DNA from: Gemmatimonas sp.
GTDB taxonomy: Bacteria > Gemmatimonadota > Gemmatimonadetes > Gemmatimonadales > Gemmatimonadaceae
Length of the DNA stretch: 64,000 nt
NCBI GenBank assembly: GCA_965279375.1
Contig: OZ257156.1
Coordinates: 32,001-96,000, forward strand
Reading direction: 5' to 3'
The notes beneath the pieces are model-generated. The model worked only from the letters and a program-made list of their open reading frames with translations. It was not told the origin of the DNA and did not search any database. The number at the start of each line of letters is the position of its first letter. Position 1 is the first letter of the stretch. Below are positions 7,405 to 54,446 of the stretch, piece after piece. The position numbers and the translations under genes were made by a program.

Positions 7405-9108
7405 TTGAATGGAGTAGCTGGCTACATGTCGTTCACGATTGGTCTGCTCGTCGTGACGTTCTTCGCCTCGCTCGGCGGACTTGGGCTGTTCATTTGGTCC
7501 ATGTCGAATGGACTCTTCGGTCCGGAATCGGCCGCGAGTCGAGTGATTTTCGGCGCCAAGGAAATCGGTCTCGCGGAAGAGCCGGCAGCGCAGAGCATCG
7601 CAGGACAGAATGAGCTGCAGGAGACGATGAACCGCACCGGACACACGGGCGAGTTCTCCGTGCTCACCGAAGAAGAAGCGGACGAGCGGTTGGTGCAGGA
7701 CGCATCGGGAAAGTGGCCTGTGCTCCTCTGCATCGGCTTCGCGGTGGCGTGGCTCGTGGCGGCCTCAGTGTTTGGTCTGATGGCGTCCATCAAGCTGCAC
7801 GTGCCGGACTGGCTGGTAGGTCAGTCGTGGTTGACCTTCGGCCGCATTCGCCCCGCGCACCTGAACGCGGTGGGCTATGGGTGGTGCAGCCTGGCGGCCT
7901 TTGGCGTCGCGTTGTGGTTGATGCCGCGCCTGTTGCGAACGCCGCTGGTCGGTGGCAAGACGGCAGCGATTGGTGCCACGCTCTGGGGATTGGGTGTGAC
8001 CGCTGGTGTGATCGCGATTCTCACCGGCCACAGCACCGGGCTCGAGTGGCTGGAATTCCCGTGGCAGTGCGATGTGCCTATGGTGATCGGCGGCACGCTG
8101 ATGGGTGTCGCGCTGCTGCGAACGCTGCGCAATCGCACCGTCGAGCACCTGTACGTCTCGGTGTGGTACATCGCCGCCGGATTGCTGTGGCTGCCGATTC
8201 TCATCACCGTGGCCAACTGGCCGGGCGTACACCACGGCGTTCAGCAGGCGGCGATGAACTGGTGGTACGGACACAACGTGCTTGGTCTTTGGTTCACGCC
8301 GATCGGCCTCGCGGCGATCTACTACTTCATTCCCAAGGTGCTCGGCAAGCCGATTCACTCGTACAACCTGTCGCTCGTCGGCTTTTGGACGTTGGCGTTC
8401 TTCTACAGTCAGGTAGGCGGGCATCATCTCATCGGCGGCCCAGTGCCGGGGTGGATCATTTCGCTGTCGATCGTGCAGAGCGTGATGATGGTGGTGCCGG
8501 TGATGGCGGTGGCCGTGAATCAGCATCGCACGTCGTGGGGACATCTTGGCGCGCTGCGCTACTCACCCACGCTCCGCTTCGTGGTGGTGGGCGGCATGAT
8601 GTACACCCTGGCGTCGGTGCAAGGCTCGATCGAGTCGTTGCGCGTGGTGAACACAGTCACGCACTTCACACACTACACCGTCGCCCACGCGCATCTCGGT
8701 CTTTACGGCTTCTTCAGCATGGTCATGTTCGGTGCGATCTACTTCGTGCTGCCGCGTGTGCTTGATTGGGAATGGCCGTCGCATCGACTGATCAGTCTGC
8801 ACTTCTGGCTCGTGATCGGCGGCTTCGCGATCTACTTCGTGGGCCTGAGCATCGGTGGCTGGCTGCAGGGGCTCGCGATGCTCGATGCTTCCAAGCCATT
8901 CATCGACAGCGTGCAGATCACCAAGCCGTACTTGCTCGTGCGAACGATCGGCGGATCGATGATGACGCTTGGCCATCTGGTGTTCGCGCTGCACGTCGCG
9001 ATGATGCTCTCGCGCCGTGGCGTGGCGAAGACGGGACCAACGCTGCTGCGCACGCGGTCATACACACCAACGTCGGCGTCGTTGGCCATCGGAGGGAAGG
9101 TCGCATGA
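7405..9108 (+). CDS. ccoN: cbb3-type cytochrome c oxidase subunit I with N-terminal extension
   Basis: TFGRIRPAHLN, WWYGHNVLGLWFTP, IHSYNLS, GGHHL, HFTHYTVAHAHLGLYG heme/CuB ligand motifs; start TTG 7405 or ATG 7426. Confidence 0.9.
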   Translation: MNGVAGYMSFTIGLLVVTFFASLGGLGLFIWSMSNGLFGPESAASRVIFGAKEIGLAEEPAAQSIAGQNELQETMNRTGHTGEFSVLTEEEADERLVQDASGKWPVLLCIGFAVAWLVAASVFGLMASIKLHVPDWLVGQSWLTFGRIRPAHLNAVGYGWCSLAAFGVALWLMPRLLRTPLVGGKTAAIGATLWGLGVTAGVIAILTGHSTGLEWLEFPWQCDVPMVIGGTLMGVALLRTLRNRTVEHLYVSVWYIAAGLLWLPILITVANWPGVHHGVQQAAMNWWYGHNVLGLWFTPIGLAAIYYFIPKVLGKPIHSYNLSLVGFWTLAFFYSQVGGHHLIGGPVPGWIISLSIVQSVMMVVPVMAVAVNQHRTSWGHLGALRYSPTLRFVVVGGMMYTLASVQGSIESLRVVNTVTHFTHYTVAHAHLGLYGFFSMVMFGAIYFVLPRVLDWEWPSHRLISLHFWLVIGGFAIYFVGLSIGGWLQGLAMLDASKPFIDSVQITKPYLLVRTIGGSMMTLGHLVFALHVAMMLSRRGVAKTGPTLLRTRSYTPTSASLAIGGKVA

Positions 9109-9716
9109 GTCGCGAAGCGCAGGTGGACCTGACGCGGCTGATTGGCGGCGCGCTGGCGATCGTGACGTTCTCGATCATCGCCCTCGTCGTGATGCCGTAC
9201 GTACTCACGCAGCAGAAGGAGATCCCGGCCAAGCCCGCGCCGTACACCGAGTCGCAGGCAGCGGGACGTGCGGTATACATCGCGAACGGGTGCATCTACT
9301 GTCACTCGCAGCAACCGCGCGATCCAAGCATCGCGCCGGACCAGCAGCGTGGATGGGGACGTCCGTCGGTGCCGGCCGACTACGTGCACGACCAGCCGCA
9401 TCTGCTGGGCACGATGCGCACCGGGCCCGATCTGTTCAACATCGCTGTGCGCCAGCCCAGCAAGGATTGGCATCTCGGGCACCTGTATCAGCCGCGCGCG
9501 TACATCGCGCAGTCCATCATGCCGTCATATCCGTTTCTCTTTGAAGAGCGGACGGGCGATGCGCAGCCGGGCGAGGTAGTGGTGACGCTTCCGCCGGGCG
9601 CGGCGAAAGCAGGCGTGCGCATCGTGGCCAAGCCGGAAGCCGTTGCACTCGTGGACTATCTCCTGTCGCTCGATCACACCTATCCCGTACGCGCGACCAG
9701 CGGAGGTACGCCATGA
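9105..9716 (+). CDS. ccoO: cbb3-type cytochrome c oxidase subunit II
   Basis: N-terminal TM helix, GRAVYIANGCIYCHSQQPR, GTMRTGPDL, SIMPSYPFL; ATGA overlap with ccoN. Confidence 0.9.
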   Translation: MSREAQVDLTRLIGGALAIVTFSIIALVVMPYVLTQQKEIPAKPAPYTESQAAGRAVYIANGCIYCHSQQPRDPSIAPDQQRGWGRPSVPADYVHDQPHLLGTMRTGPDLFNIAVRQPSKDWHLGHLYQPRAYIAQSIMPSYPFLFEERTGDAQPGEVVVTLPPGAAKAGVRIVAKPEAVALVDYLLSLDHTYPVRATSGGTP

Positions 9717-10294
9717 GGCGCGAGACGCGCGCTCCCCGCGATCGTGAGCACGGCGATCCGGAAGAACAGGTTCGCCCGCTGCCACGCGCGCTGCTCTCGC
9801 TGGCGTTGGTCGCTGGACTCTGGGGCGGCTGGTATCTGGCGACGAGTGAGTCGGATGTCTCGCCGATGCTCGGCGATCGCCGCACGGCGGCCGCGTTTCA
9901 GGCAGCACCAGCCAATGCTACGGTGGACGGCGCGCAGGTGTTCACGGGCAAGTGCGCGGCGTGTCATCAGGCAACGGGTCTCGGCTTGCCCGGCGTGTTC
10001 CCGCCGCTCGCGAAGTCGCCGTGGGTGGTGGGTGCGGAGGAACGGCTGTTGCAGATCCTGCTGCACGGCATTCAGGGGCCCATTGAAGTGCTGGGCGCGA
10101 CGTACAACGGTGCAATGCCCGCGTGGAATACACTGAGCGACGCAGAATTGGCCGCAGTGGCCACGTACATTCGCGGTGCATTCGGCAACAGTGCGGGCGC
10201 GATTACGGCGGAGACGGTGGCGAAGGCGCGCGCGGCCACGGCGTCACGCACGACGCCGTGGTCGGGTGGCGAGGAGTTGGAGCACATCCAGTGA
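9713..10294 (+). CDS. Membrane-anchored monoheme cytochrome c (CcoP-like position)
   Basis: One TM helix, CAACHQATG.GLPGVFPPL, axial Met in YNGAMP. Confidence 0.88.
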   Translation: MRRETRAPRDREHGDPEEQVRPLPRALLSLALVAGLWGGWYLATSESDVSPMLGDRRTAAAFQAAPANATVDGAQVFTGKCAACHQATGLGLPGVFPPLAKSPWVVGAEERLLQILLHGIQGPIEVLGATYNGAMPAWNTLSDAELAAVATYIRGAFGNSAGAITAETVAKARAATASRTTPWSGGEELEHIQ

Positions 10295-10944
10295 AGAGCT
10301 GGCGCGCAGTCGTCGGGGTTGGGCTCGCGTTGAGCGCGACGATGGCGATGGTGGCGACCGCCACCGACGGCTTTCGTGCCTGGACCACCGATGCTGCGCG
10401 CGCACGTGCTGTCAGCGCGAAGCCTGTGATGGTGCCACCTGTTGCACTGCTGGATATGCATCGCGCGCCACAACAGCTCTCGGACAGCACACGCAGCACG
10501 ATCGTGGATTTCGTCTACACGCGTTGTCCGTCGCTCTGTGGCACGCTTGGCTCGACATACCAGCGATTGCAAGCCGAGCTGCAGCAACGCGCCCTCGGCG
10601 ATCGGGTACGGCTGCTGACCATCTCGTTCGATCCAATGTGGGACACCCCCGAGCGTTTGCGCTACTACTCGATTACCATGCGCCCAGACCCGGCGCTGTG
10701 GACGATCGCGACGTTGCCTGACACGAATGGGCTCGCGTCGATGCTCGCGACGTTTGGCATTCGCGTGATTCCTGACGATGCCGGTGGCTTCACGCATAAC
10801 GCGGCGTTGCACGTGGTCGATCCGCAGGGGCGGCTCGTGGGCATTCTTCCGGTGGATGCGACGGCGGATGCGATCGATCTGGCCCTGGCGCGGGCCAATC
10901 CGCCCACGGCCGCTCATCGCAGTGCAACAGTGAGTGCGCGATGA
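10291..10944 (+). CDS. SCO1/SenC family copper chaperone
   Basis: FVYTRCPSLC (CxxxC), ISFDP.WDTPE, FTHNA His; GTG start overlaps the upstream stop. Confidence 0.88.
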   Translation: MKSWRAVVGVGLALSATMAMVATATDGFRAWTTDAARARAVSAKPVMVPPVALLDMHRAPQQLSDSTRSTIVDFVYTRCPSLCGTLGSTYQRLQAELQQRALGDRVRLLTISFDPMWDTPERLRYYSITMRPDPALWTIATLPDTNGLASMLATFGIRVIPDDAGGFTHNAALHVVDPQGRLVGILPVDATADAIDLALARANPPTAAHRSATVSAR

Positions 10945-11633
10945 CCCCAACAATGAGTACTCGCCCAGCTCGCGCTGATGCGCATGCCTCGGGCGCGCTC
11001 GACGCCGATGGGCAGTCGCGCCCGGCGTCTGAGCGCCGCGCACGGTACGTGTTCGCGCTGATTGCCCTCCTCGCCTGTCTTGCCTCGCGCTTGATACTGG
11101 AGCGCACCATGTGGGCGCAGATGCTGCTGCAACTGCCGCTCCTGCTCGTGGTGGGTGCGTACCTGGCATCCGCTCTTGCGCGACGTGACGTGCACGATTT
11201 GACCGCAGCACGCGCAAGTGCATGGAACCCTCAGGGAGCCGCCGGACTCGTACTCGCGTCTGGCGTCGTGACGCTCTGGATGATTCCGCGCCTGCTCGAT
11301 GCCGCACTCGAGCAGCCGCTCGTTGACGCTGCCAAGATGTCGATGCTGCTCGCGGCGGGCGCGATCGGATGGATTTCATGGCGCGCCGCCATGCCGATCG
11401 TGCGCGTGTTCATGCTCGGCAACGTGGCGTGGATGACGGCGACCGTCGGCGTGCTGCTGCTCGACTCTCCCGTGCGCCTGTGTGCGAGCTATGGCGCGAA
11501 CGACCAGCGCGTGACAGGATATGGGCTGGTACTGATCGCGTTGTTCGTGGTGGTGGCGGCGTTCGTGCGGTTCAGCGCGCCGGCTCTACCGGACAAGTCA
11601 TCGCTCACACGCCCAGCGCACCATGTCGTCTGA
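10941..11633 (+). CDS. Integral membrane protein, probable oxidase assembly factor (CtaG-like)
   Basis: About 6 hydrophobic helices, MWAQMLLQLPLL, LWMIPRLLD, PVRLCASY...DQ; coupled to SCO by ATGA overlap. Confidence 0.6.
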   Translation: MTPTMSTRPARADAHASGALDADGQSRPASERRARYVFALIALLACLASRLILERTMWAQMLLQLPLLLVVGAYLASALARRDVHDLTAARASAWNPQGAAGLVLASGVVTLWMIPRLLDAALEQPLVDAAKMSMLLAAGAIGWISWRAAMPIVRVFMLGNVAWMTATVGVLLLDSPVRLCASYGANDQRVTGYGLVLIALFVVVAAFVRFSAPALPDKSSLTRPAHHVV

Positions 11634-12426
11634 CGCTCAACACACCACAAACGCGCGCTCGGAGTTCGCTGGGTCGGAGTTCGCAGGGAAGGTCGCGTTC
11701 ATCACAGGTGGCGCGTCGGGCTTGGGGCGCGCGTCCGCGCAGCACCTCGCCGCGCAGGGTGCGCACGTCGCGATCGCCGACATCCAGCATGATGCGGCGC
11801 ACGCGCTTGCGGCGGAGATCGAGTCCAGCGGAGGGCGTGCGATCGCTGTACCGGTCAACGTGCGCCGCGATGACGAAATCGAAGCTGCGGTACACGCCAC
11901 GGTCGCGGCGTTCGGGCGGCTGGACATCGCGATCAACGCGGCGGGCATCGGCGGCCCGGAGCTGCGCACCGCCGAGTATCCGCCGGAAGCGTGGGACCTC
12001 GTGATCGATGTGAATCTCAATGGCGTCTGGCGCAGCATGCGCCACGAGATTCCCGCGATGCTCGAGCGAGGTGGCGGAGTGATCGTCAACGTCGCGTCGG
12101 TGGCCGGGCTGGGCGGATTCCCGCGGCATCCAGCCTACGCGGCCAGCAAGCACGGCGTGGTGGGGCTCACGCGGACAGCGGCGCTCGAATACGGCAAACG
12201 CGGCATTCGCATCAACGCGCTGTGCCCCGGCTTTACACTGACGCCGATGGTGCAGCAGATGATTGATGCGGGGCTGCCCGCCGAGCAGTTGGCGGCCCGC
12301 GTTCCGCTTGGTCGCCTGGCAACGGCCGACGAAGTGGCGGCGACGGCGCTTTATCTCTGCAGCAGCGCGAGCGCGTTCATGGTGGGACATGCGCTCGCGA
12401 TCGACGGCGGGATTACCGCGGGTTAG
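11623..12426 (+). CDS. Short-chain dehydrogenase/reductase
   Basis: TGGASGLG, NAAG, NVAS, YAASK, NALCPG. Confidence 0.95.
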   Translation: MSSDAQHTTNARSEFAGSEFAGKVAFITGGASGLGRASAQHLAAQGAHVAIADIQHDAAHALAAEIESSGGRAIAVPVNVRRDDEIEAAVHATVAAFGRLDIAINAAGIGGPELRTAEYPPEAWDLVIDVNLNGVWRSMRHEIPAMLERGGGVIVNVASVAGLGGFPRHPAYAASKHGVVGLTRTAALEYGKRGIRINALCPGFTLTPMVQQMIDAGLPAEQLAARVPLGRLATADEVAATALYLCSSASAFMVGHALAIDGGITAG

Positions 12427-12487
12427 GCGGCGGCGTCACCTCTCGCTCGCGAACGACGCGCCTCGATGCAAGCAGCGATGAGCGCTC

Positions 12488-13609
12488 TCACTGACGCCAT
12501 CGCTTGATGTACCATGTTCGCGAACCGTCCCGATCGCACTCGTACTGCACACCAGTGACGTTGTTGTCGGTGCTGACGCCGCCGGCGATGGTGAGACACT
12601 TGTCCGTCTGCGTGTTGCGGAGTTCGTACGCGGACCCACTGCCGATCGGTTCAAAATGCCAGTACCGAGATGGGTGCGCGTCGCAATCGTACTGCACGGC
12701 AGGAACGCTGTTGTCGGTGCTCACGCCACCGGAGATCGTCAGGCACTTCCCCGTTTGAACATTGCGCGCCTGAAACACCTTCGCGTCGTCGGTTGCAGAC
12801 AGCCGCCAGCGACGTGAGGGATCAGTATCGCAGTCGTACTGCACGGTCTCGAGGCTGTTCGCTTCGCTCACGCCGCCGGCGATCGTCAGACACTTGCCAG
12901 TCTTCGCGTTGACGAGCATCACCTCTCCGTCGGCGGCTTGTGCCAGCGCTGATCGACTCGGCGGCGGCACCGTCTCCGTCTTCGGAGCCGGCGGCTTCAC
13001 CTCCGAGTCTGGTGCGAGCACGCCTGCGTCGAGCGACGTCGTTGCGCTGTCTGCCGTCGACATCAAGACCGGCTCTCGCGTCAGCAGATAGCCGGTCCCT
13101 CCGAGTGCTGCGAGCAGCGCGACAGCAAGCACGCCCTTGGGAATTCCCGCTCGACGAACTGTGAGCGCTGGCTCCTTCGTCTTGGGCGCCGACCCGCCCA
13201 GACGCTTGCCCGCGAGCGCCGCACGAACGCCGGCCAGCACTTCCTGCCATTCGGGATTCGCAGGATCACCTCGCCATCCCGCCAGGTTGGCGCATTGCAC
13301 ATGACGAAAGCCGAGCGGGATCGCGCATGGCTCGATCTGCACGGGAATGATCGGCCGTTTCAGTCGTTGGGCCTCGTCGACCTCGTTGAACACCCACGCG
13401 GCGGACGCAGAATCCTCAGTCCGCTTGGACCACACCGCGATCACGACTTTCGCTTCTTCAAGGGCGGAGGTGATGGTCTCACGCCAAGTGCCGCCCACGG
13501 TGATCTTCTGATCCCACCACACACTCACTCCCTCGCGCTCCAATGCGAGCGCGAGCGTCTTCACCAGTTCCCGATCTTCACTCTTGTAGCTCAGAAAAAC
13601 GTCGGCCAT
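12488..13609 (-). CDS. TIR domain - TM - ricin B-type beta-trefoil lectin protein
   Basis: N-terminal DVFLSYKSED..VWWD..SAAWVFNEVDEA..IIPV (TIR_2 pattern), hydrophobic GVLAVALLAALGGTGYLL, three TGKCLTI.GG...QY.C.....R.W repeats. Confidence 0.85.
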   Translation of the reverse strand: MADVFLSYKSEDRELVKTLALALEREGVSVWWDQKITVGGTWRETITSALEEAKVVIAVWSKRTEDSASAAWVFNEVDEAQRLKRPIIPVQIEPCAIPLGFRHVQCANLAGWRGDPANPEWQEVLAGVRAALAGKRLGGSAPKTKEPALTVRRAGIPKGVLAVALLAALGGTGYLLTREPVLMSTADSATTSLDAGVLAPDSEVKPPAPKTETVPPPSRSALAQAADGEVMLVNAKTGKCLTIAGGVSEANSLETVQYDCDTDPSRRWRLSATDDAKVFQARNVQTGKCLTISGGVSTDNSVPAVQYDCDAHPSRYWHFEPIGSGSAYELRNTQTDKCLTIAGGVSTDNNVTGVQYECDRDGSRTWYIKRWRQ

Positions 13610-13688
13610 TGTGTCCTCCGTGCTGTGCGGAAGAACTTACCGGTGCCGCGCGACTGGAAACAATGAGGCAATTCAACCAGAGGCGCGC

Positions 13689-14681
13689 TTACGCGTCGCC
13701 GTTTGGTACCAGTACGATCTTACCGTTGCGTTCGCCTGCGGCAGCCGCCGCAATCGCCTCCTGAATCTGCTCCAGCGGATACGTCGCCTGCACGCGCGCC
13801 GACAGATGTCCGGTGGCGATCAGTGTGGCCAATTCGCCAAACAGTGCGCGCTGTCGCTCGGGCGCGGCTGTGCGAAACCAGAACGCGAGCCAGAAGCCGC
13901 GCAGCGTCACGTCGCGAAAGACGAACGAACTCGGCAACACCGTGCAGGGCTGGCCGCTCATGCCGCCGTAGTTCACCACCGTGCCGCCGATCGCCACGCT
14001 TTGCGCGAGGTAGTCGGTGGACTTGCCACCCACGGCATCGATGGCGAGGCGAATCTTCGCCTTCCCCGTCGCCTCGGCGATGCGATGCTTGAGATCCGGC
14101 CCATCCACGAGAACCACATCGCCGCCGATCGCCTGCACCTCGGCGACGGCGCTCTCGCGACGTACCACGTTCACCGTGCGCACACCCTGTCGTTTGGCCA
14201 GCTGAATGAGGTAGCCACCGACGGCCGAGTTGGCAGCGTTCTGAATGACCCAGTCGCCTTCGGCCAACGTGACGAACTCTGACAGCAGGAGCGCGGCCGT
14301 CGGCGGATTGACGGTGAGCATGGAGAGCTGCACCGGATCACCGACGTCGGGCAACGGCATCAGCGTCGCCGCGGGTGCAATCATGTGCGTGCTCCACGTG
14401 CCGGCACCAACGGGCAGCAGCACGCGCTGCCCTAACCTCACGTTGCTCACGCCGTCGCTCACTGCGGCGACGCGTCCGATGCCTTCGTTACCGCCAACGG
14501 CCGGTAGCGAGGGCAGCACTCCGTACAGTCCCGCGATGGTGAGGACGTCGCTCGGATTGATGGGCGTCGCCAGCACTTCGATCAGTGCTTCTCCTGCTTG
14601 CAGCGCAGGAGTCTCCATCTCTTCGCAATGAATCAGCGTCGCGGGCGTGGGACCGCGCTCATGGTAGATCGCTCGCTTCAC
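13689..14681 (-). CDS. MDR-family NADPH 2-enoyl thioester reductase-like protein
   Basis: PINPSD, GNEG, TVNPPTA, IQNAANSAVG, YGGMS; start GTG. Confidence 0.85.
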   Translation of the reverse strand: MKRAIYHERGPTPATLIHCEEMETPALQAGEALIEVLATPINPSDVLTIAGLYGVLPSLPAVGGNEGIGRVAAVSDGVSNVRLGQRVLLPVGAGTWSTHMIAPAATLMPLPDVGDPVQLSMLTVNPPTAALLLSEFVTLAEGDWVIQNAANSAVGGYLIQLAKRQGVRTVNVVRRESAVAEVQAIGGDVVLVDGPDLKHRIAEATGKAKIRLAIDAVGGKSTDYLAQSVAIGGTVVNYGGMSGQPCTVLPSSFVFRDVTLRGFWLAFWFRTAAPERQRALFGELATLIATGHLSARVQATYPLEQIQEAIAAAAAGERNGKIVLVPNGDA

Positions 14682-14712
14682 GACAACCTCCGGTACGACG
14701 GGAAACGCGTGA

Positions 14713-45377: not shown

Positions 45378-45779
45378 GTGACGCCATCACGCGTAGACGT
45401 CTCGCCCGCCGCCGAGCAGTTGCTGCGCAAGTTGCAGTCGCTGCACGGCGAGTTGGTGTTCCATCAGTCGGGGGGCTGCTGCGATGGCAGCTCCCCGATG
45501 TGCTATCCGCGTCGGGAGTTCCGCATCGGTGCGCGTGACGTGTATCTCGGAACGATCGCCGACGTGCCGTTCTACATTGGCGCGCAGCAGTTCGAGTACT
45601 GGCAGCACACGCATCTGACCATCGACGTGGTGCCTGGTCGCGGCGCAGGCTTTTCGCTGGAGACGCCGGAAGGACTGCGATTCCTGACGCGCTCGCGTCT
45701 GTTCGAAGACGCGGAGTATCACGCGCTGGAGGCGGCGGGTCCGCCACCGCGTGGGGATCAGAGTGCGACGGCGCGTTAG
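45378..45779 (+). CDS. DUF779 family protein
   Basis: FHQSGGCCDGSSPMCY, QFEYWQHTHLTIDVVPGRG.GFSLE; usual partner downstream of AldB. Confidence 0.92.
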   Translation: MTPSRVDVSPAAEQLLRKLQSLHGELVFHQSGGCCDGSSPMCYPRREFRIGARDVYLGTIADVPFYIGAQQFEYWQHTHLTIDVVPGRGAGFSLETPEGLRFLTRSRLFEDAEYHALEAAGPPPRGDQSATAR

Positions 45780-46228
45780 GCGTTCGATCCGTTGCCGCGT
45801 GGGATCGACGATGCGGTCAGTCCGAATAGTGCACCAAAGGCGCGGCGGTCGCTGATGTTACCGAGCAAATCGATGTAGATGGGCAACGCACCGCGCACGG
45901 GGATCCAGACCCGCGGTGCGTTGATGGGCCCGCTGTAGCCGGCCGCGGTGCGTTTCACTCGCGCGATGCCAAGGTCACCGCGCGCCACTCGTCTCTGCCA
46001 AAAGAGAAGCGTCTGGATGCGCAGCACGTCCGTCGCGTCGTGCTGCACCTCCACGGCGAGCACGGCCCCGAAGAACCACGCCGGCGCCACGAGAACGCTC
46101 CCCATCGCAATGAGCGTGAGACTCGCGAGTTGGGCGCCCAGCACGATGGCCGCACCGCCAGCGAGCAGCGCGCCCAGGATGACGATGCGCCACACCCAGG
46201 CGATGGCGCCGTAGCGATAGAGCGTCAC
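45776..46228 (-). CDS. Hypothetical membrane protein (2 TM helices plus small beta-rich cytoplasmic domain)
   Basis: Two hydrophobic helices, then LRIQTLLFWQRRV; GTGA overlap with the upstream gene. Confidence 0.65.
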   Translation of the reverse strand: MTLYRYGAIAWVWRIVILGALLAGGAAIVLGAQLASLTLIAMGSVLVAPAWFFGAVLAVEVQHDATDVLRIQTLLFWQRRVARGDLGIARVKRTAAGYSGPINAPRVWIPVRGALPIYIDLLGNISDRRAFGALFGLTASSIPRGNGSNA

Positions 46229-46566
46229 TCCGTGCCCGCGTCGTCGTGGTGCGTGCCGTCCGACTGACTGCCCACGATCGTGCCGTCCGCATCAATCGTC
46301 GCCTCTACATTGGTGTCCGCCTCCGCGTCGAACGAATCGATCTCGGTGTCCATCTCCTGCTCGGAGATCGCGTCAACGATCGTTGAGTCATCGGAGGCGG
46401 CGGTGACCTCGGCCGTGACGATCTCGTTGAGCGAGCCCACGACCTGACCGATTACTTCGCTGATCTGCGCGCTGATGCCGTTCACGCCATCGGCGATCGC
46501 CGGCGTGATCTCGCGCGTGACGCCGGCGGCGGTCTCCGCGATGTTCCCGAATAGTGAGTCTGCCAT
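46225..46566 (-). CDS. Highly acidic hypothetical protein
   Basis: 113 aa, about 25 D/E versus 1 R and no K by hand count; purine-rich RBS. Confidence 0.7.
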   Translation of the reverse strand: MADSLFGNIAETAAGVTREITPAIADGVNGISAQISEVIGQVVGSLNEIVTAEVTAASDDSTIVDAISEQEMDTEIDSFDAEADTNVEATIDADGTIVGSQSDGTHHDDAGTE

Positions 46567-46635
46567 GTTCCCGTCTCGGTGAAGATGCTGATACCACGTG
46601 GCGCTGCGCGTGGAAGCGCACGCGTCATGCCCGTG

Positions 46636-47451
46636 CTACGCCTCGGTGATTCCCGTTTCCTGGTGCATCTGCTCGAGCATGTGCGGATCGCTGATCGCCG
46701 CCGGGCTCACATCGTTCACATGGGAGTCCGGATGTGATTCGGCGTAGGAGTGCAGCGCCTCGGACGCAGCGGGGAGTTCGTCGTGTACGCGGTCAGCGAA
46801 GGCGTCGAGTGCCTCATGCACCTTGTCGGCGTCTGCGTCGAGGGTTTCCCGGACGGCTTCCACCTTCACGCGCGAGGCGTCGATCTCGTTCGCATCCGCA
46901 TTCTGCATGTCGGCGCGTGCATCAATGAAATCCTGGGCGGTATCGCCGAGGTCGGTGGTGACGACATCAACGAGTCCGCCAATCATCCCGACTGTCGGAT
47001 CGATGATTGGATCGATGACTTCCACGACGAGATCAAAGCTTGTCGCGACGGTGCCGATGCTTGGATTCGGGTTGTTCGCGTCGGCGATAATCTCGGGATG
47101 CTCGGCCTTGAAGTCCTGAAAGTGTTCTACGACGTCGCCCTTCCAGCTCGTGATGGCATCGCCGAACTCTTCACCGACTTCCTGCACGTGCGCCCGAATC
47201 GACTCGACGCGCGACTCGCTGAGTGAACGAAACGACGCGTACTCCTCGTCGCTGATCAGCCCTGCCGCATGATCCGACGCGACCTTCGCTTCCTGCTCGA
47301 AAATGACTTTACCGATCTCCGTCTGCGAGAGCGGCGTGTTCTTGTCTTCCGGATGCTCCTTTGCCCACTTGGCTTCGGATTCCTGCACGAAGGTGGTGAA
47401 GGGCATGCCGGTCGTGGCGGTCTCGGTTGCGCCTGGAACGAATTCAGTCAT
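46636..47451 (-). CDS. Acidic helical hypothetical protein
   Basis: 271 aa ORF, D/E-rich, internal SHOCT-like AGLISDEEYASF. Confidence 0.75.
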   Translation of the reverse strand: MTEFVPGATETATTGMPFTTFVQESEAKWAKEHPEDKNTPLSQTEIGKVIFEQEAKVASDHAAGLISDEEYASFRSLSESRVESIRAHVQEVGEEFGDAITSWKGDVVEHFQDFKAEHPEIIADANNPNPSIGTVATSFDLVVEVIDPIIDPTVGMIGGLVDVVTTDLGDTAQDFIDARADMQNADANEIDASRVKVEAVRETLDADADKVHEALDAFADRVHDELPAASEALHSYAESHPDSHVNDVSPAAISDPHMLEQMHQETGITEA

Positions 47452-47587
47452 GGACGACTCGCGGTGTAGGTCGATGCGGTATGCAACGTCGGTCTTGCAT
47501 CACATGTCAGAAGGCGCAGTTTTTACGACAACTGGCTCATGCGCATCAATCGATTCACCTCCCAGGCACTTCGCCGAGGCACGACAC

Positions 47588-47890
47588 ATGACCGCACCGC
47601 TCGTCAATGGCCAGCCAGACCCCGGCGAAAACGCGTCGGCCTCCGATGCGTTCGAAGTGTTCGTCTCCGAGACGCTGCCTGACGGCGTGATGGAGGTGAT
47701 CGAGGCGGTGCACGAACTCACCTCCTCGCCCGTCGAGCTTGCGCAGGAGCATCTCGAGGCGGTGGGCGAACTGCAGATGCAGAGTGTGGAGGCGTTGATG
47801 AACGACGACCCGGACACCGCGCGAGCGTTGCTGGCGGAGGCGGATCAGGAGATGCGCGCGGGAGAAGACGCGCTGAACAACACCGACTGA
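47588..47890 (+). CDS. Small acidic helical hypothetical protein
   Basis: GAGG RBS, 100 aa, E/D-rich, no Lys. Confidence 0.65.
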   Translation: MTAPLVNGQPDPGENASASDAFEVFVSETLPDGVMEVIEAVHELTSSPVELAQEHLEAVGELQMQSVEALMNDDPDTARALLAEADQEMRAGEDALNNTD

Positions 47891-47919
47891 GGTCGCCCGG
47901 CGCTGGTACGACCACGCAG

Positions 47920-47949
47920 CGGCGCGGCTGCCGTATTGCGGCCGCGCCG
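47920..47949. terminator. Hairpin between convergent genes
   Basis: CGGCGCGGCTGC-CGTATT-GCGGCCGCGCCG, 12-bp stem with one G-U pair; no clear U tract. Confidence 0.45.
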
Positions 47950-47960
47950 AAGCCCGTCGC

Positions 47961-48578
47961 TTACTCGGTGGTGGCCTCCGCTGAGGTATCCGCAACCGTC
48001 GACGCCGCGTAGCTGCCGCCTGCATCACCGGCATCGGCGTGCGCGTCCGCCGCATCAGCATGCGACGCGGCAGTATCGGCATACTGCTCGGCGTGCGCAT
48101 AGTCGCCTTCGGCTGCGTATGACGCGGCGGAGTCTGCGTTCATGTTCGCGGTCTCCTGCTCGTCGCTCGCATTCTCCAACGCCTTCACTTCGTCGTACTG
48201 GGTATCCTGCTGCGCGTCGATGGTCGGGTGCGCGGCTTCGGCGCCACGATCATCCGCTTCCTTGAGATCGTATTCGGCGAGCTTGGCCATCTCTTCGGCC
48301 TTTTCGTAGTCGCCTGACTCGACTGCGACCGCTTGCTCGTGCCGCGCTTCACGCGCGCTCTCGAGCGCATCATCGGCTGCCTGCGCGTCGAGCTTGGCGT
48401 CGAAGATCTCTTCTTCGGTGAGGGTACCCGCGGCGAGATCGTCGGCGACGGTCACGGTCACCTGCTCCGCCTCTTCCTTCGAGAGCCCCGCCACTTCGAG
48501 ATCGAGCGCATCCTGGACGCGCTGCTGCTCTGCCGCCCGCTGTGCGAGTTCCTCTGCTTCGGTTTCTGTGTCGGCCAT
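47961..48578 (-). CDS. Acidic Ala-rich helical hypothetical protein
   Basis: GGAG RBS; 205 aa dominated by A/D/E; two GDY..AE..A motifs. Confidence 0.75.
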   Translation of the reverse strand: MADTETEAEELAQRAAEQQRVQDALDLEVAGLSKEEAEQVTVTVADDLAAGTLTEEEIFDAKLDAQAADDALESAREARHEQAVAVESGDYEKAEEMAKLAEYDLKEADDRGAEAAHPTIDAQQDTQYDEVKALENASDEQETANMNADSAASYAAEGDYAHAEQYADTAASHADAADAHADAGDAGGSYAASTVADTSAEATTE

Positions 48579-48680
48579 GGTGCGCTCCGATTGGTGTGGC
48601 GAGTGAGGTAGCGATGGTGGTGTCGAACGACTTGTCGGCAGATCCGGCCGTGCGGATGCATTTCGACGTTCTACGTGTGC

Positions 48681-49214
48681 TCAGCCGCTGTCGGGCTCCG
48701 TGGTGGCTGCGGCATCGTGCGCCGCTTCCACGGGCGCTGGTGGCGGCGGAGGTTCCGGCTCGGGCTCCGGCTCGACGGTGGCCTCAGGTTCTTCCGCGGG
48801 GCCGGCGCCACGTGGGTCCGGCGTCGCGTCCTCCACGTGCCCGGTGGCACTCGATCCTTCGTCGTGATGCGGATCGGTCGTTGTGGATGCATCTGTGGCC
48901 GCAGATGCCTGCGCGGTCTGCTGCTGAGCGGCTTGCTGCGACGCCTGTTGCGCAGACTGTTGTGCCGCTTGCTGCGACGCTTGCTGCGACAGCTGCTGCG
49001 CGCCGTGCGATTGCGCGAGCATGTGCTGCGGCTCGACGCGCGCGCCGAGTGCGTCCATGCCCATGCCATCGGGTTGCCCTTCGATGTCCACCGATCCGGT
49101 GGCGCGCGTGTTCAGCTCGACCTCGACGACGGGCGCGTCTTCGTGTGTACCGTCGACGGTGGGCCCGTCTGCCGAATCGACGACTGACACGCGGACCTCG
49201 CTGGGGCTCGTCAT
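48681..49214 (-). CDS. Acidic low-complexity hypothetical protein
   Basis: GAGG RBS; SQQA/AQQS repeats, PEPEPEP and poly-Pro tail. Confidence 0.65.
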   Translation of the reverse strand: MTSPSEVRVSVVDSADGPTVDGTHEDAPVVEVELNTRATGSVDIEGQPDGMGMDALGARVEPQHMLAQSHGAQQLSQQASQQAAQQSAQQASQQAAQQQTAQASAATDASTTTDPHHDEGSSATGHVEDATPDPRGAGPAEEPEATVEPEPEPEPPPPPAPVEAAHDAAATTEPDSG

Positions 49215-49275
49215 GCGTGCCTCATGCGGCCGTCCTGCGTGGCGCCTGCGATCGTTGCGGCGTGTTCATGCGCGT

Positions 49276-50880
49276 TCACTCGCTCTGTGTGGACGCGGCC
49301 GCGAGGTCCGCGTTCGCAGGTGCGACGTTCGCAGGTGCGACGTTCGCAGGTGCGGTGTTTGCAGGTGCGGTGTTTGCTGGCGCGGCCGGTTTGGGCTTTA
49401 CCAGCAGAATTGCTCGGCAGGTTGGCGTCGGGCAGCGCACGTTGAGCGACTCCTTGCCGGCCAGCGCTGCCGCGGGAATTCGCATCCCCTCGCTGCACTT
49501 CGCACACACAATGCGGATGGTATCCGCATCGGCGGCTGGCGCTGGTGCGGGAGGCGTAGGAGGCGGCGACGGCGCTTTCGGCGTAACCGTCAACACGGCG
49601 CGACAGTTCGGATTGGGACAGCGCACGTTCACCGGCGCCGTGCCTTCGAGTGCGGTGCGTGGCACACGCATGCCTTCGTTGCACTTCGCGCACACCAGGC
49701 GCACCGTGTTGGGGTCCGGCGGCACCGGCGTGTTGCTCACGCGCGTCGTGGCGTTCGTCGGTGCGCTCTGCGTCGCCGTTCCATTTGCGGCCGCTGCGGG
49801 AGGCAACCAGTGCGTGATGACCGCGCGCCACGCCTGCACATACTCGCTGCGGGCGAACTCGCGCATCAGTCGCAACCGACCGGCGAGATAGGGCGCCGAG
49901 GCCAGCGTCCACTCGGAGAACTGGGTGAGGCTGTCGTCGGCGGCGTCCTCCTGCTCCATCCATGCGTCGTGGTTCATGCGCTGGAGGAGCGGAAACGAGC
50001 GGAACGTCCAGGCCTGCAGCACGCGACGCGCGATCGCTTCGTTGCCGACACACATCACGCCGGCATAGTCGGCGGTGATTTCCGCGTGTCGTGCCCACGC
50101 CATGAGCGGCGCATCGATTGCGTTCTCGATCAGCTTGGCCGGGTTGAGCATCTTGAGCACGCCGTCGCCCATGATGGAGCGCTTCTGACTCCGGCCGGAG
50201 ATGAACTGCATCACCGTCTTCCAGAGCGCGTGTCCGGCACGACAGTGTCCCATCTCGCGCCCCAGCACGAACAGGAGCTCGTCCTCCTTGAAGTTGAGGA
50301 GCACGCTGCCGATGACGATGAAGGCGCTGTTCTCCGTGCCGAGCGTCATCGCGTCCCACATCTGATCTCCCGAGATGTAGATCTCGGGCAGATATGGCAG
50401 TCCGACGATGCGTGCCGCGCGGATGGCGGTGTCGAAGACATCCGGGAGCTGACGTTCGCTCAGACGCAGGCCGTTGACGGCGGACTCGAACCACCGTCGA
50501 CCAACCTTTTCTGATATCGCGTGCGCGGCCTGCGTGAGCGGGCCGAGCGAACGCAGCACGTTCATCGCGTCAGCGTCGAGGCGCCAGAGAAACGCTTCGA
50601 CGGGGAGCGCATAGTCGGGCGCGAGTGGCCGAAGCCAGCGACAGGTGCTGCAGTAGACCTTTGCTGCGGGAAGTCCGGAGCCGTCGCCGTTGCAGGTGGG
50701 ACAGACGTATCCCATCGCGTACGGAGAGTACGCCATCGGCACGGGCGGCTGATACGCGTGTTCGGCGTAGCCGTTGGGTGCGTACGCCGACGACGCGTTG
50801 GCCGTCGCCACCGACGCGCCGCAATGAATGCAGAAGCGCGCGTCGGCGGCGAGCGTACCGGAGCAGGAGGTGCACTGCAC
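49276..50880 (-). CDS. M48 (HtpX/Ste24)-like peptidase domain with four Zn ribbons; HExxH replaced by RExxH
   Basis: LSERQLPDV, P.IYI, DAMTLG, ELLFVLGREMGHCRAGH, WARHAEITADYAG; CxxC pairs at both ends. Confidence 0.8.
   Translation of the reverse strand: MQCTSCSGTLAADARFCIHCGASVATANASSAYAPNGYAEHAYQPPVPMAYSPYAMGYVCPTCNGDGSGLPAAKVYCSTCRWLRPLAPDYALPVEAFLWRLDADAMNVLRSLGPLTQAAHAISEKVGRRWFESAVNGLRLSERQLPDVFDTAIRAARIVGLPYLPEIYISGDQMWDAMTLGTENSAFIVIGSVLLNFKEDELLFVLGREMGHCRAGHALWKTVMQFISGRSQKRSIMGDGVLKMLNPAKLIENAIDAPLMAWARHAEITADYAGVMCVGNEAIARRVLQAWTFRSFPLLQRMNHDAWMEQEDAADDSLTQFSEWTLASAPYLAGRLRLMREFARSEYVQAWRAVITHWLPPAAAANGTATQSAPTNATTRVSNTPVPPDPNTVRLVCAKCNEGMRVPRTALEGTAPVNVRCPNPNCRAVLTVTPKAPSPPPTPPAPAPAADADTIRIVCAKCSEGMRIPAAALAGKESLNVRCPTPTCRAILLVKPKPAAPANTAPANTAPANVAPANVAPANADLAAASTQSE
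49311..49385. repeat. Five tandem 15-bp units encoding PAN(T/V)A
   Basis: cgttcgcaggtgcga-type unit three times, then two tgtttgc(a/t)gg(t/c)gcgg variants. Confidence 0.9.
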
Positions 50881-50886
50881 AGACTA

Positions 50887-51891
50887 TCAGAGCCGCTTGA
50901 GGATTTCGGCCTTCTTCGCGTCGAATTCTTCCGCCGTGATGGCGCCCATGTCCCGCATTTGCGCGAGCTGCTTCATCTGCTCGACGAGACCGGACTCCGC
51001 AGGCGCGGCGTTGGCGGGTGGCTGCGGTACGTGCGGCGGCGGTGGCGGTGGCGGCGCGTACTGCCCCGGCGGCGGAGGAGGTGGTGCGTACGCACCGTTC
51101 GCCTGCGGCGGAGGCGGCGGTGGCGTGTAGCTCTGCTGCGGTGGCGGTGGTGGTGGCGGCGTGTAGCTCTGCTGCGCGCCGGCCGTGGCGCCATAGGTGC
51201 CCATCTGCAGCTGCGAGAGCAGCTTTTCGGCCATCTCCTTGGGCACGGTGCTGGTGAGGCTGTACGCCTGCCATGCCAACGAGGCCGCGCCCAGAATCAG
51301 GATGATGAAAGCGAGGCCGGTATAGATGTTGAGAAAGACACCAAGGATCGTGACGCCGATGGCGATCGTCATCTGCTTCGAGATGCTTTCCGGCTTGCAG
51401 TCGATGCGCACCTGGCTCTGGCGCGGTCCGCTGCCCGTGACCGTGATGTCGCCGACGTACGTGACCTTTTGTCCACCGGTGGTCCAGAAGTCCTTCTTTA
51501 TCACGGAGTACTTGATGGTCTGCGGCGGTGCCTGCCACATCACCTGGCCGTTGATAGTTCCGACGGCCGCGATCGCCTGCGCAAACGCCGTCCCTTGATC
51601 GACGTTCAGGCCGACCTGCACACCGGCGCCACCACCACCGATGCCGCGACTGAATCCGGCTGCAGGCGGTGGAGGCGGTGGTGGCGGTGGTGGATAGTTG
51701 TTCGGCGGCGGAGGCGGTGGTGCCTGAAAACCGTTGGGCGGCGGTGGAGGCGGCGCTGACTGCCCCGCATTGGGCGCTCCTCCGGCGACGAGTGTGCCGC
51801 CGCACCCCGCGCAGAAGCGCGCTTGGGCAGGGTTTGCGGCTTGGCAACGCGGGCACTGCACGGTCGCGGCGGAATTCGGCGGCGCAGTCAC
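50887..51891 (-). CDS. Zn ribbon - polyPro - 2 TM - polyPro - SHOCT membrane protein
   Basis: CPRC..N...ARFCAGCG, two TM helices, C-terminal QMKQLAQMRDMGAITAEEFDAKKAEIL; GTG start with AAGGA RBS. Confidence 0.8.
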   Translation of the reverse strand: MTAPPNSAATVQCPRCQAANPAQARFCAGCGGTLVAGGAPNAGQSAPPPPPPNGFQAPPPPPPNNYPPPPPPPPPPAAGFSRGIGGGGAGVQVGLNVDQGTAFAQAIAAVGTINGQVMWQAPPQTIKYSVIKKDFWTTGGQKVTYVGDITVTGSGPRQSQVRIDCKPESISKQMTIAIGVTILGVFLNIYTGLAFIILILGAASLAWQAYSLTSTVPKEMAEKLLSQLQMGTYGATAGAQQSYTPPPPPPPQQSYTPPPPPPQANGAYAPPPPPPGQYAPPPPPPPHVPQPPANAAPAESGLVEQMKQLAQMRDMGAITAEEFDAKKAEILKRL

Positions 51892-52061
51892 AGATCGGTC
51901 CTTGCGGGTAGTGAATCGGCGGAGGGACGCACACCAGAGAGAGCGCGAAATGGCGCGGCCGAGGCTCATCCATGCGCGACGAGCCACAGTCGACCGCTTT
52001 TGCGCCTTGGGTGGAGACGCGATCGCCGAACGGCGCGTCGTTCCCCAGCCCGGAGCAGGAG

Positions 52062-52997
52062 ATGCACCGACTGCAGCACGCAGCACTCGTCAGCGCGATG
52101 GCCGTCGTCGCCCACGTGAGCGCGCCCCAAGATCTCTTTCGCGACCCGGCGGGGCGCTTCACGCTGATGGTGCCATCGGGCTGGCGCGCCACCCCACAGG
52201 GTGGCGGCGTCGTGATCACCAACGGGAACGTGATGGCGATGTTCTCGCCATTCAGCGGCGTGCGTTCCGGCAACGACGTCGTGGCCGCGCTGAATGCGCA
52301 GTACGGTGCGCAGTGGCGCGATCTGCGTACGATGGATCAGGGGACGTTCAGCGTGGCCGGCCGCCCCACCGCATACGCGGTGTATTCAGGCACCAATCCG
52401 CGCGGAGTGCCGTCCATCTTGCGACTCGCCGGGCTGACCGATTCGCGAGACGGCTACGCCATCGTGATGTCCGCGCCGCAAAGCGAATTCAACGCCGCGA
52501 GCCAAACGCTGCAGGCGCTCGAACAGAGCTTCACTCTTGCCGACGCAGGTGGCGCGGGACCGGCACCCGCGCCCGTTCCGGGCCCGCTTCCGCCACCGAT
52601 GCAGGGAGGCGGTGCGTTAGGCATTCGCGGCAATGGCATGCCGCCGAACGGTGGGATGCCGAATGGCCCCGTGCCAAATGGCCCAGTGCCGAACGGCGGC
52701 GCGCCGTCGGGACGCGCCACCCTCGGCGTCTACACGCGCAACGTCGAGGCGGCCGATCTGCCGCGCATTGGCATCAAGGAGCAGTTGGGTGCTCTCATCG
52801 AGCAGGTCGCACCCGGAAGCGCCGCGGAACGCGCGGGATTGGTGCCGGGCGACGTCATACTCAGCGCGGACCAGCAGACGATTCGTCAGCACACCGAACT
52901 CCAGCGCGTGGTGCAGAGCCATCGGCCAGGCGAGTCCGTGTCGCTGATCCTGATGCGCGGCGGACGCCCACTGACGCTGGCGGTGACGCTGCGGTGA
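52062..52997 (+). CDS. Secreted protein with PsbP/DcrB-like N-domain and C-terminal PDZ domain
   Basis: AGGAG RBS, signal-like N-terminus, FRDPAGRFTLMVPSGW, Pro/Gly/Asn linker, LGVY...GALIEQVAPGSAAERAGLVPGDVI. Confidence 0.8.
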   Translation: MHRLQHAALVSAMAVVAHVSAPQDLFRDPAGRFTLMVPSGWRATPQGGGVVITNGNVMAMFSPFSGVRSGNDVVAALNAQYGAQWRDLRTMDQGTFSVAGRPTAYAVYSGTNPRGVPSILRLAGLTDSRDGYAIVMSAPQSEFNAASQTLQALEQSFTLADAGGAGPAPAPVPGPLPPPMQGGGALGIRGNGMPPNGGMPNGPVPNGPVPNGGAPSGRATLGVYTRNVEAADLPRIGIKEQLGALIEQVAPGSAAERAGLVPGDVILSADQQTIRQHTELQRVVQSHRPGESVSLILMRGGRPLTLAVTLR

Positions 52998-53069
52998 CGT
53001 TGCGGTGAGTCGCGATAGCTCCGCGCAGACGTCGCGGAGCGCGCGCCATCGCAGGAGTTCGCGTCTCAG

Positions 53070-53537
53070 CTACCGCTGTCGCGAACGTACGTATGCCTGG
53101 CGGCGCGATTCCAGTTGCTCGACGGCCGCACGCGGCACCAGCGCATCGACTGCGCCTCGCGCCGAACGTGCTCGCTCTTCGAGGTCGTCAGCGACATACG
53201 ACGGAATCACGACCTGACGTCCGCTTGCAATGACCAGCAGAGAGTCGCCGCCGGCGCCAACCGGTACGTCACGGCGCTCACGCCAGCGCGCGCGAAAGAG
53301 ATCGAGCTGCTCGAACGCGCCGTACAGCCAATCGAGGTGCGTGACGTAGAGCGGAAACGGTTGCGTCCAGACCGGCGCGCGAGGCGCTCCCGGGTCCACC
53401 TGCAACTCGATCAGCCCCTCGGCGCGCGGCCCGATTCGCACAATGCGTCGCCAGTTGTGCGGCGAAGCAAGCGGCGGTGAACTTTGCGTCCACTCCGCAC
53501 GAAAGTCGGCCGGACGCGGTGTGCTTCTTGTGAGCAT
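53070..53537 (-). CDS. Hypothetical protein
   Basis: Globular-looking 155 aa 3' part of ORF 53070..53777 (PLYVTHLDWLYGAFEQL...GRQVVIPSYV). Confidence 0.55.
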   Translation of the reverse strand: MLTRSTPRPADFRAEWTQSSPPLASPHNWRRIVRIGPRAEGLIELQVDPGAPRAPVWTQPFPLYVTHLDWLYGAFEQLDLFRARWRERRDVPVGAGGDSLLVIASGRQVVIPSYVADDLEERARSARGAVDALVPRAAVEQLESRRQAYVRSRQR

Positions 53538-53562
53538 TGTGTGCCGTGTGGCCGTGTGGCGG

Positions 53563-53826
53563 TCAGCTGAGTGGCGTTGTACCGCCCGCGGTGTGCTGCT
53601 CCATCGGCAGCCCCACGTGTTCATCGGACACGCGATCATCCGGCGACATCGGGCTGTGCGCGCTGTGCGGGTCAGCCATCGCGGATTCGTCGATACAGAG
53701 CGGCGCAGGCGCGTCAGGCACGGCCACCGGAATCTCGGCGGTCGCCTCCAGCGGCTTCGGTGTCTCCGCAGTCGCATCGATGACCACGGGGAACTCCGCC
53801 GTCGCGTCGACGATGGGCTCCTGCAC
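53563..53826 (-). CDS. Small acidic hypothetical protein with three (D/E)ATAExP repeats
   Basis: GTG start sharing one base with the upstream TAG; GAAGGGG RBS; repeats with 10-aa period. Confidence 0.5.
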   Translation of the reverse strand: MQEPIVDATAEFPVVIDATAETPKPLEATAEIPVAVPDAPAPLCIDESAMADPHSAHSPMSPDDRVSDEHVGLPMEQHTAGGTTPLS

Positions 53827-54446
53827 TACCCCTTCGTCTTCTGGTTCTCGTAGCTGATGTTCGCGCACGTCATCGACGCGTCGATGGCGGGCGTGAAGTT
53901 GTTCACCAGCTTCATGCTGCTGGCACCGGGCAGAATCGGATCGGAGCAGGTCGACGCGACATGACGGCCATCGTTGCACATCACCACGACGTCGAGGCAC
54001 ATCGTGCGATTGGCCTGCGCCATGTTCTGAAAGCCGCACTGCACCGCGTCCGCGCTCACCCCGGTGCACCCCATGAACGTGACCGAGGTGTCGCCGGACA
54101 GTTCGTTCATGCCGTCCTTCATCTGACCAACGCCGCTGTAGATCGCGAAGGCACCGAGCGCGCCCATCAATCCACGTACGACGAGACGCGCCTTGGGATC
54201 CTTGGGCATCCAATCCATCCGCGACTTCTTCTCTCGCGGCTCAGGCGAAACCGGTGCGGGTGGCGGCGACGCGGCCAAGGTGGATACCAACGGTGTGGAG
54301 GCGGCTGCGACCCAGTCTCCATAGCCCGGCGAAACCAGCGTCGAACCGTTGATGGCCCCTGAGCGGATCAGCGCGTCCATCGCAGCACGCGGCAGCGGAC
54401 CGACGCTCGCGCCGTCCTGCACGTAGTACCACGTCTCGACACTCAT
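53826..54446 (-). CDS. GYF_2 (DUF4339) domain membrane protein with Cys-rich C-terminal domain
   Basis: WYYVQDG...GPL....M..LI.SGAI...TLV..G..DWV; one TM helix; 6-Cys C-terminal domain. Confidence 0.82.
   Translation of the reverse strand: MSVETWYYVQDGASVGPLPRAAMDALIRSGAINGSTLVSPGYGDWVAAASTPLVSTLAASPPPAPVSPEPREKKSRMDWMPKDPKARLVVRGLMGALGAFAIYSGVGQMKDGMNELSGDTSVTFMGCTGVSADAVQCGFQNMAQANRTMCLDVVVMCNDGRHVASTCSDPILPGASSMKLVNNFTPAIDASMTCANISYENQKTKG

Follow-up and report, generated by a model that had tools for sequence, protein, structure and literature searches.

A TIR-transmembrane-beta-trefoil gene in Gemmatimonas sp.: a candidate stand-alone surface receptor

Sensors that couple a lectin fold to TIR-type effectors have been published for the FGS/CLec and NPCBM folds (PMC8195603, PMC10907252), and in the available sections of these papers some CLec sensors are predicted to be periplasmic. 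According to the same sections, the FGS/CLec systems involve STAND/MoxR NTPases, adaptors or DGR hypervariation. In animals, Toll-like and IL-1 receptors are single-pass proteins with a binding domain outside and a TIR domain inside the cell (available text of PMC7075850). The word "ricin" is absent from the available main texts of PMC8195603, PMC10907252 and the TIR survey PMC7075850. No description of a TIR-TM-trefoil/ricin architecture was found in the largely open-access main texts searched.

Here, we analyze a gene of this architecture (P0001) in a 64,000-nt stretch of a Gemmatimonas genome, hereafter called the window. Like the FGS/CLec and NPCBM conflict sensors, P0001 joins a lectin-fold domain to a TIR-type effector. 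Unlike FGS/CLec sensors, which have the FGE/C-type-lectin fold, its ectodomain is a beta-trefoil, which is conserved and comes without an NTPase or adaptor partner; P0001 thus lacks the ectodomain fold and the partner gene that mark membership in those systems. With Toll-like and IL-1 receptors it shares the single-pass layout, but a trefoil replaces the LRR or Ig domains and the catalytic Glu is kept. Whereas a Toll-like receptor has an N-terminal LRR and a C-terminal TIR domain, P0001 has the reverse order and no LRR, and the likeness is an analogy rather than membership. Weak PADLOC matches to ThsB of the Thoeris system cover the first 30-90 residues of P0001 (E at least 0.0014). Unlike ThsB, P0001 carries an ectodomain behind a predicted membrane helix, and thsA neither adjoins it nor was detected in the genome; in place of the cognate thsA of a Thoeris operon, its neighbors are an SDR and an MDR gene.

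Domains and predicted topology of P0001

Table 1. Positions in the window of the P0001 gene, its parts and its flanking genes.
Feature	Position	Strand	Basis
TIR-TM-beta-trefoil gene (P0001)	12488..13609	-	ORF, 373 aa, ATG start
Shine-Dalgarno-like GGAGG	13615..13619	-	sequence; 6-10 nt upstream of the P0001 ATG
TIR domain, residues 1-135, predicted cytoplasmic	13205..13609	-	Pfam, AlphaFold, structural match, dN/dS
WxxxE motif, W72 to E76 (AbTIR cyclization Trp, catalytic Glu)	13382..13396	-	profile alignment
Basic flexible linker, residues 136-158 (positive-inside signal)	13136..13204	-	sequence
Predicted transmembrane helix, residues 159-177, marginal hydrophobicity, stronger in relatives	13079..13135	-	hydropathy, AlphaFold
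Pro/Ser/Thr/Ala-rich stalk, residues 178-228	12926..13078	-	composition
Ricin-type beta-trefoil, residues 229-373, three repeats, non-canonical T/Y/S/R subsites	12491..12925	-	Pfam, fold match
Flanking SDR gene (context, not partner)	11623..12426	+	Pfam
Flanking MDR-family reductase gene (context, not partner)	13689..14681	-	Pfam

Pfam assigns residues 4-113 to TIR_2 (E 6.9e-23; 81.9 bits against a cut-off of 28), residues 1-134 match a TIR structure with a Z-score of 16.6, and the domain is modeled by AlphaFold with a pLDDT of about 95 (alignment A4). The best solved sequence matches of the TIR profile are those of AbTIR (PDB 7uwg/8g83; SARM1-type active site), with an E-value of 1.9e-10. When a profile of 48 near relatives was aligned to AbTIR through alpha-C, W72 and E76 of P0001 fell on W204 and E208, and G39, T41 and R43 of the BB loop fell on G174, S176 and R178. 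This bears out the sequence-only reading, in which an N-terminal TIR domain had been credited with a candidate catalytic Glu in the motif WVFNE (residues 72-76). Unlike AbTIR, P0001 carries an Asn (N75) at the position of Y207. The equivalent of E76 is kept in all 48 near TIR domains and all 29 TIR-TM-trefoil proteins, and that of W72 is a Trp in 45 of the 48. The available text on AbTIR reports that E208A, R178A and Y207A are inactive, that G174A and S176A retain very little activity or none, that activity increases with self-association, and that W204 favors cyclic ADPR products (10.1101/2022.05.07.491051). Given the conserved active-site residues, the TIR domain of P0001 is probably competent to cleave NAD+. 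AbTIR self-associates by a coiled coil (same text), whereas a predicted membrane helix links the TIR domain of P0001 to an ectodomain.

In an AlphaFold model based on a 29-sequence alignment, two confident domains flank a region of low confidence. The stretch 159-177 is the sole hydrophobic one (Kyte-Doolittle 19-mer 1.79), flanked by five K/R within the preceding 20 residues and by one K/R after it, so that hydropathy predicts a single positive-inside helix between the domains in a single-pass layout. The one TM helix after a basic stretch proposed earlier was recovered as a prediction, weak in P0001 and clear in its relatives. Its GES20 value (1.26) is the second lowest among 18 near relatives; with alignment A1 the region was left unfolded, and residues 161-175 became helical (pLDDT about 60) only with alignment A4, which includes close TIR-TM relatives. 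Net positive charge precedes the helix in 18 of the 18 nearest TIR-TM proteins. TIR and trefoil occur together in 34 of 247 fetched proteins, about 18 of these being near-copies of one clade, and in 33 of the 34 a hydrophobic 19-mer of at least 1.6 lies between the two domains. This family-wide predicted helix, together with free trefoils that follow signal-peptide-like stretches and with the Cys pair of each trefoil repeat, supports an N-in/C-out topology, which is very probable for P0001. Both domains of the earlier description stand on Pfam and fold matches, and its topology is predicted from hydropathy and the family pattern, with a marginal helix in P0001 itself. Genes for a PEP-CTERM protein and a TonB-dependent receptor plug in the window suggest that the host has a two-membrane envelope.

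The stalk is of low complexity, as first described (28 of its 51 residues are S/T/P/A). In 17 relatives measured, its length ranges from 8 to 288 residues, and in some relatives (P0153, P0199) BON or PASTA domains, which are linked to envelope binding, precede the trefoil.

The trefoil is covered by three stretches of RicinB_lectin_2 over residues 226-370, approximately (E 3.9e-29), and each repeat holds a Cys pair (240/260, 289/309, 338/358), in accordance with the C-terminal beta-trefoil with two Cys per repeat seen at the outset. Against R-type lectin trefoils it reaches Z-scores of about 26 at an rmsd of 1.1-1.5 A. The top fold matches are ThreeFoil (Z 25.9) and Ct1,3Gal43A (Z 25.7) at 1.1-1.2 A, and the protease inhibitor cocaprin also matches (Z 21.9). 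The fold, the three-fold repeat and an aromatic residue at the sugar-stacking position are shared with R-type lectin/CBM13 trefoils (Ct1,3Gal43A, 3vsf; ThreeFoil, 3pg0; Tpp80Aa1 N-domain, 8bad), but at 22-30% identity P0001 has T/S/R in place of D/N/Q. Subsites were mapped by profile alignment to ThreeFoil and to the 3VT1 protein, whose galactose site consists of D416, Y431, N438 and Q439 (available text of PMC9784298). They are T242/Y258/S265/R266, T291/Y307/S314/R315 and T340/Y356/S363/R364. Thus, of the galactose tetrad D/Y/N/Q only the aromatic is kept in all three subsites, and QxW reads RxW, which departs from the Asp/aromatic/Asn/Gln plus QxW of galactose lectins. With three of four tetrad residues replaced, glycan binding does not follow from the Pfam name, and the earlier label "glycan sensor" lacks support in that form. 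Tpp80Aa1, on the other hand, is described in the available text of PMC9784298 as binding galactose through a tetrad that ends in Ser and Glu and retains the Asp, so that substitution in the tetrad is compatible with sugar binding.

In 40 non-redundant loci, the Ser is found in 118 and the Arg in 119 of 119 repeats, the Thr count there being biased because the search pattern forced it. The corresponding figures for 29 TIR fusions are 81 (T), 81 (S) and 83 (R) of 86 repeats; all repeat sets were ranked by similarity. We read these fixed residues as a conserved putative site, the ligand of which would be something else than simple Gal/GalNAc. Our guess, at a little under even odds, is a conserved surface polymer, possibly an acidic one in view of the invariant Arg. 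No solved structure of this T/Y-F/S/R subfamily occurs among the solved-structure matches, a literature search for Arg-type CBM13 sites was without result, and the ESM Atlas returned generic ricin clusters only. A cytolethal distending toxin subunit, suggested by Pfam (CDtoxinA, E 9e-8) and JGI labels, was rejected as a generic trefoil match, since CDT chains rank below the lectin modules in fold matching and the neighbors of P0001 are reductases.

Relatives, origin and genomic context

Of 111 genome matches and 268 metagenome matches to the trefoil patterns, the 80 best in each set were taken as trefoil loci. In 139 of these 160 loci the trefoil directly follows a signal-peptide-like stretch, without a TIR domain; a TIR domain in the same ORF was found in five, and three more are cut fragments of that type. 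The trefoil family is thus, as judged from these sequences, made up for the most part of stand-alone proteins some 180 residues long, with records from Nonomuraea, Nostoc, Pseudoduganella and Mycolicibacterium among others. Trefoils of this length (L034-L193) form an unnamed family in Actinomycetota, Cyanobacteria, Proteobacteria and Acidobacteriota with invariant T/Y-F/S/R subsites. Several Mesorhizobium proteins of about 700 aa (L098, L099, L102, L109, L110) contain several trefoil repeats of the subfamily and are followed by a paralogous gene. Conserved neighbors of the family were sought and dismissed, as the largest cluster comprises eight of the 160 loci and resembles synteny among kin. 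Carriage by phages or plasmids was likewise discarded: no trefoil relatives were found in viral contigs, and no plasmid match at E 1e-15.

Proteins with other C-termini share 55-76% identity with the TIR-helix module of P0001; NCBI names two of them as Vitreimonas and Terricaulis. An unnamed ectodomain of about 90 residues is common to 13 of the 16 nearest TIR-TM relatives with other C-termini. The relatives in question include P0005-P0014, P0023, P0024, P0124, P0125 and P0128, and for the shared ectodomain the ESM Atlas gave a sub-threshold lead, a cluster with 17% PF12151 MVL. Within the family of a Hyphomonadaceae bin (G103), 2 of 148 genomes, G219 and G229, contain the nearest TIR-helix modules (67-68%). 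TIR trees (a quick one of 117 rows and a second of 37 rows, 33 of them from the 117 and four added) place P0001 and its closest homologue P0002 inside the clade with the 90-residue ectodomain, apart from three other TIR-trefoil groups. The TIR-trefoil label needs four changes on the 37-row tree, of which at least three are forced by strong branches, and a single TIR-trefoil clade was rejected (p-AU 1.25e-61, with long branches present and rows picked after the first tree). Hence, the fusion arose more than once or the ectodomain was often swapped, and the survey of the architecture called for at the start shows that it recurs.

Between P0001 and P0002 (85% identity; one pair), dN/dS is 0.10 for the TIR domain and 0.08 for the trefoil at a dS of about 0.5. 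The gene is under purifying selection, and the trefoil is conserved rather than diversifying.

P0001 is present in one of 87 genus genomes, many of them incomplete, and the gene is an accessory insert. In 12 of the 19 genus loci read, which come from the best 20 of 50 matches with the window's own locus excluded, the two reductase genes face each other with nothing between them, and a P0001-type gene stands in none. In two metagenome contigs, P0002 follows a 3' remnant of the MDR gene with stop codons and precedes the last SDR codons. In one of them, L114, both flanking reductases are remnants and the TIR-trefoil gene is intact. An IS91-type zinc domain and a reverse-transcriptase fragment adjoin the P0002 loci (L114:2080-3780, L115:1352-5010), and P0002 was possibly moved by an IS91-type element. 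Decayed flanks and low dN/dS indicate that the TIR-trefoil gene is a selected unit that needs neither neighbor. The lone position between two reductases was described correctly before; a functional link to them was rejected, since they are adjacent on their own in most of these genus loci and are both remnants in L114.

No shared partner gene was found among eight TIR-type loci inspected, all on short contigs. With PADLOC at E of 1e-8 or less, the 61 other window ORFs gave matches to a Ser/Thr kinase, a sigma-54-type ATPase and a small HTH protein only, all at least 19 kb from P0001. A surrounding defence island thus finds no support, and the defence role suggested at first receives none from context. 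No RNA data set was listed with the gene, and no sigma-70 promoter or terminator matched for P0001, whose codon score lies in the lower fifth of the window genes; the in-frame GC3 of its trefoil is 0.766. Logan contigs from two runs of one sample, which may be the window's own source, show no differences over 11600-14700. In a second study, a single contig of 239 bases covers the gene start and upstream region (window 13445-13683) with three differences, a match too short to be read further.

A candidate receptor and its rivals

Taken as a whole, P0001 may be a stand-alone surface receptor whose TIR domains cleave NAD+ when an outside ligand clusters its trefoils, a reading to which we assign a probability of roughly 40% on sequence evidence. 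A multivalent ligand would bind the three equal trefoil subsites and draw receptors together; clustered cytoplasmic TIR domains would then form a two-subunit active site and cleave NAD+. We infer activation by lateral clustering, for which the odds are slightly better than for a rigid conformational relay, because the linkers are flexible and very variable and TIR NADases need self-association. The chances are about even for an output in which loss of NAD+ or an ADP-ribose-type alarm would bring a cell under attack or envelope insult to arrest. In favor of selection on the TIR-trefoil combination are the rejection of a single origin, the low dN/dS of both domains against P0002, and the intact gene of L114 between decayed reductases. 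The receptor reading has against it the marginal helix of P0001, the change of Y207 to N75, the loss of the galactose tetrad, and the lack of defence neighbors and of a shared partner.

The same layout could serve non-lethal signaling, with a TIR domain that makes a cyclic ADP-ribose-type messenger or scaffolds other TIR domains in a paralogous network. Two 3.4-Mb genomes, G219 and G229 (L206-L244), hold 21 and 18 TIR_2 matches. Among their TIR ORFs read, 19 of 34 have a hydrophobic stretch of at least 1.7, several are without the catalytic Glu, and one carries cytochrome c1 and c domains. The window's genome has six TIR_2 genes, four with membrane helices, including by eye TIR-TM-FGE-like, TIR-TM-helical and CHASE2-like-TM-TIR forms. 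TIR-TM-X is thus a modular chassis, and the about 20 TIR_2 matches each of G219 and G229 fit everyday signaling better than suicide defence. The housekeeping gene context of P0001 and the widely kept W72, a Trp that favors ADPR cyclization in the AbTIR text available, point the same way and make this a real rival. Known receivers of such a messenger, however, were not found in the genome, neither SIR2_2 (control positive) nor STALD and ThsA_Macro (both controls silent), and P0001, an orphan among the genus genomes, must work without its donor's network; on balance, we consider non-lethal signaling unlikely. Quite unlikely is an envelope-damage sensor, in which the trefoil holds receptors apart on the cell's own envelope polymer until damage or proteolysis frees the TIR domains to assemble. 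The BON or PASTA domains before some trefoils would suit such a sensor and the invariant subsites a fixed ligand, and amoeba TirC is lytic once its helix is removed (PMC13142454, available text). However, the trefoil is free and secreted in Actinomycetota, Cyanobacteria and Proteobacteria, a spread that speaks against an anchor specific to one host, and no protease partner lies nearby.

A protein or peptide instead of a sugar as trefoil ligand is improbable. The replaced subsite residues and the cocaprin match would allow it; the top fold matches are lectin modules, however, the aromatic is kept, and Tpp80Aa1 shows that galactose binding tolerates Ser and Glu where Asp is kept. Finally, rarity, patchy distribution, the absence of a promoter match and the low codon score could mark a recent chance fusion or inert passenger without a working signal. 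The low dN/dS in both domains at the dS given above, repeated independent fusions, and an intact gene between the decayed flanks of L114 speak against it and leave it very improbable.

To our knowledge, the bacterial TIR and NLR-type proteins that sense phage respond to intracellular cues. A periplasm-activated TIR would, if true, be a bacterial counterpart of the Toll receptor. In its boldest form the receptor reading makes P0001 a bacterial one-polypeptide pattern-recognition receptor of the cell surface, in which a captured secreted trefoil is coupled through the inner membrane to a TIR domain that cleaves NAD; this we regard as doubtful. TIR assembly would be triggered, in Toll-like fashion but with the enzyme built in, by a conserved surface polymer in the periplasm, either foreign or derived from damage, and a secreted beta-trefoil with new binding-site chemistry would have been captured repeatedly by bacteria. 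Two-domain and partner-free, P0001 offers a simple test case, and it brings to light a secreted, unstudied trefoil family with a fixed, non-canonical putative binding site. Genomes with about 20 TIR_2 matches further raise the question whether many bacterial TIR domains serve everyday sensing rather than defence.

Other features of the genomes and the window

The cytochrome fusion of G219 (L219:1486-3114) is a single ORF of 543 aa reading TIR_2-TM helix-cytochrome c1-cytochrome c, a haem ectodomain on the TIR chassis. A TIR domain fused to a ParA/MinD-like ATPase occurs in both G219 and G229 (L217:556-1812, L239:595-1863). In the window's genome, two low-GC (0.57 and 0.55) soluble TIR genes lie 26 kb apart (G000:C1:1275068-1276108 and 1302293-1303159), one of them with a restriction-endonuclease-like C-terminus by eye; the pair is a possible defence island far from the window. 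Within the window itself, positions 45776-54446 hold mostly unannotated genes along with M48 peptidase, SHOCT, PDZ and GYF_2 proteins, and positions 7405-11633 a compact cbb3-type oxidase-like cluster with COX1, FixO, cytochrome c, SCO and a CtaG-like gene.
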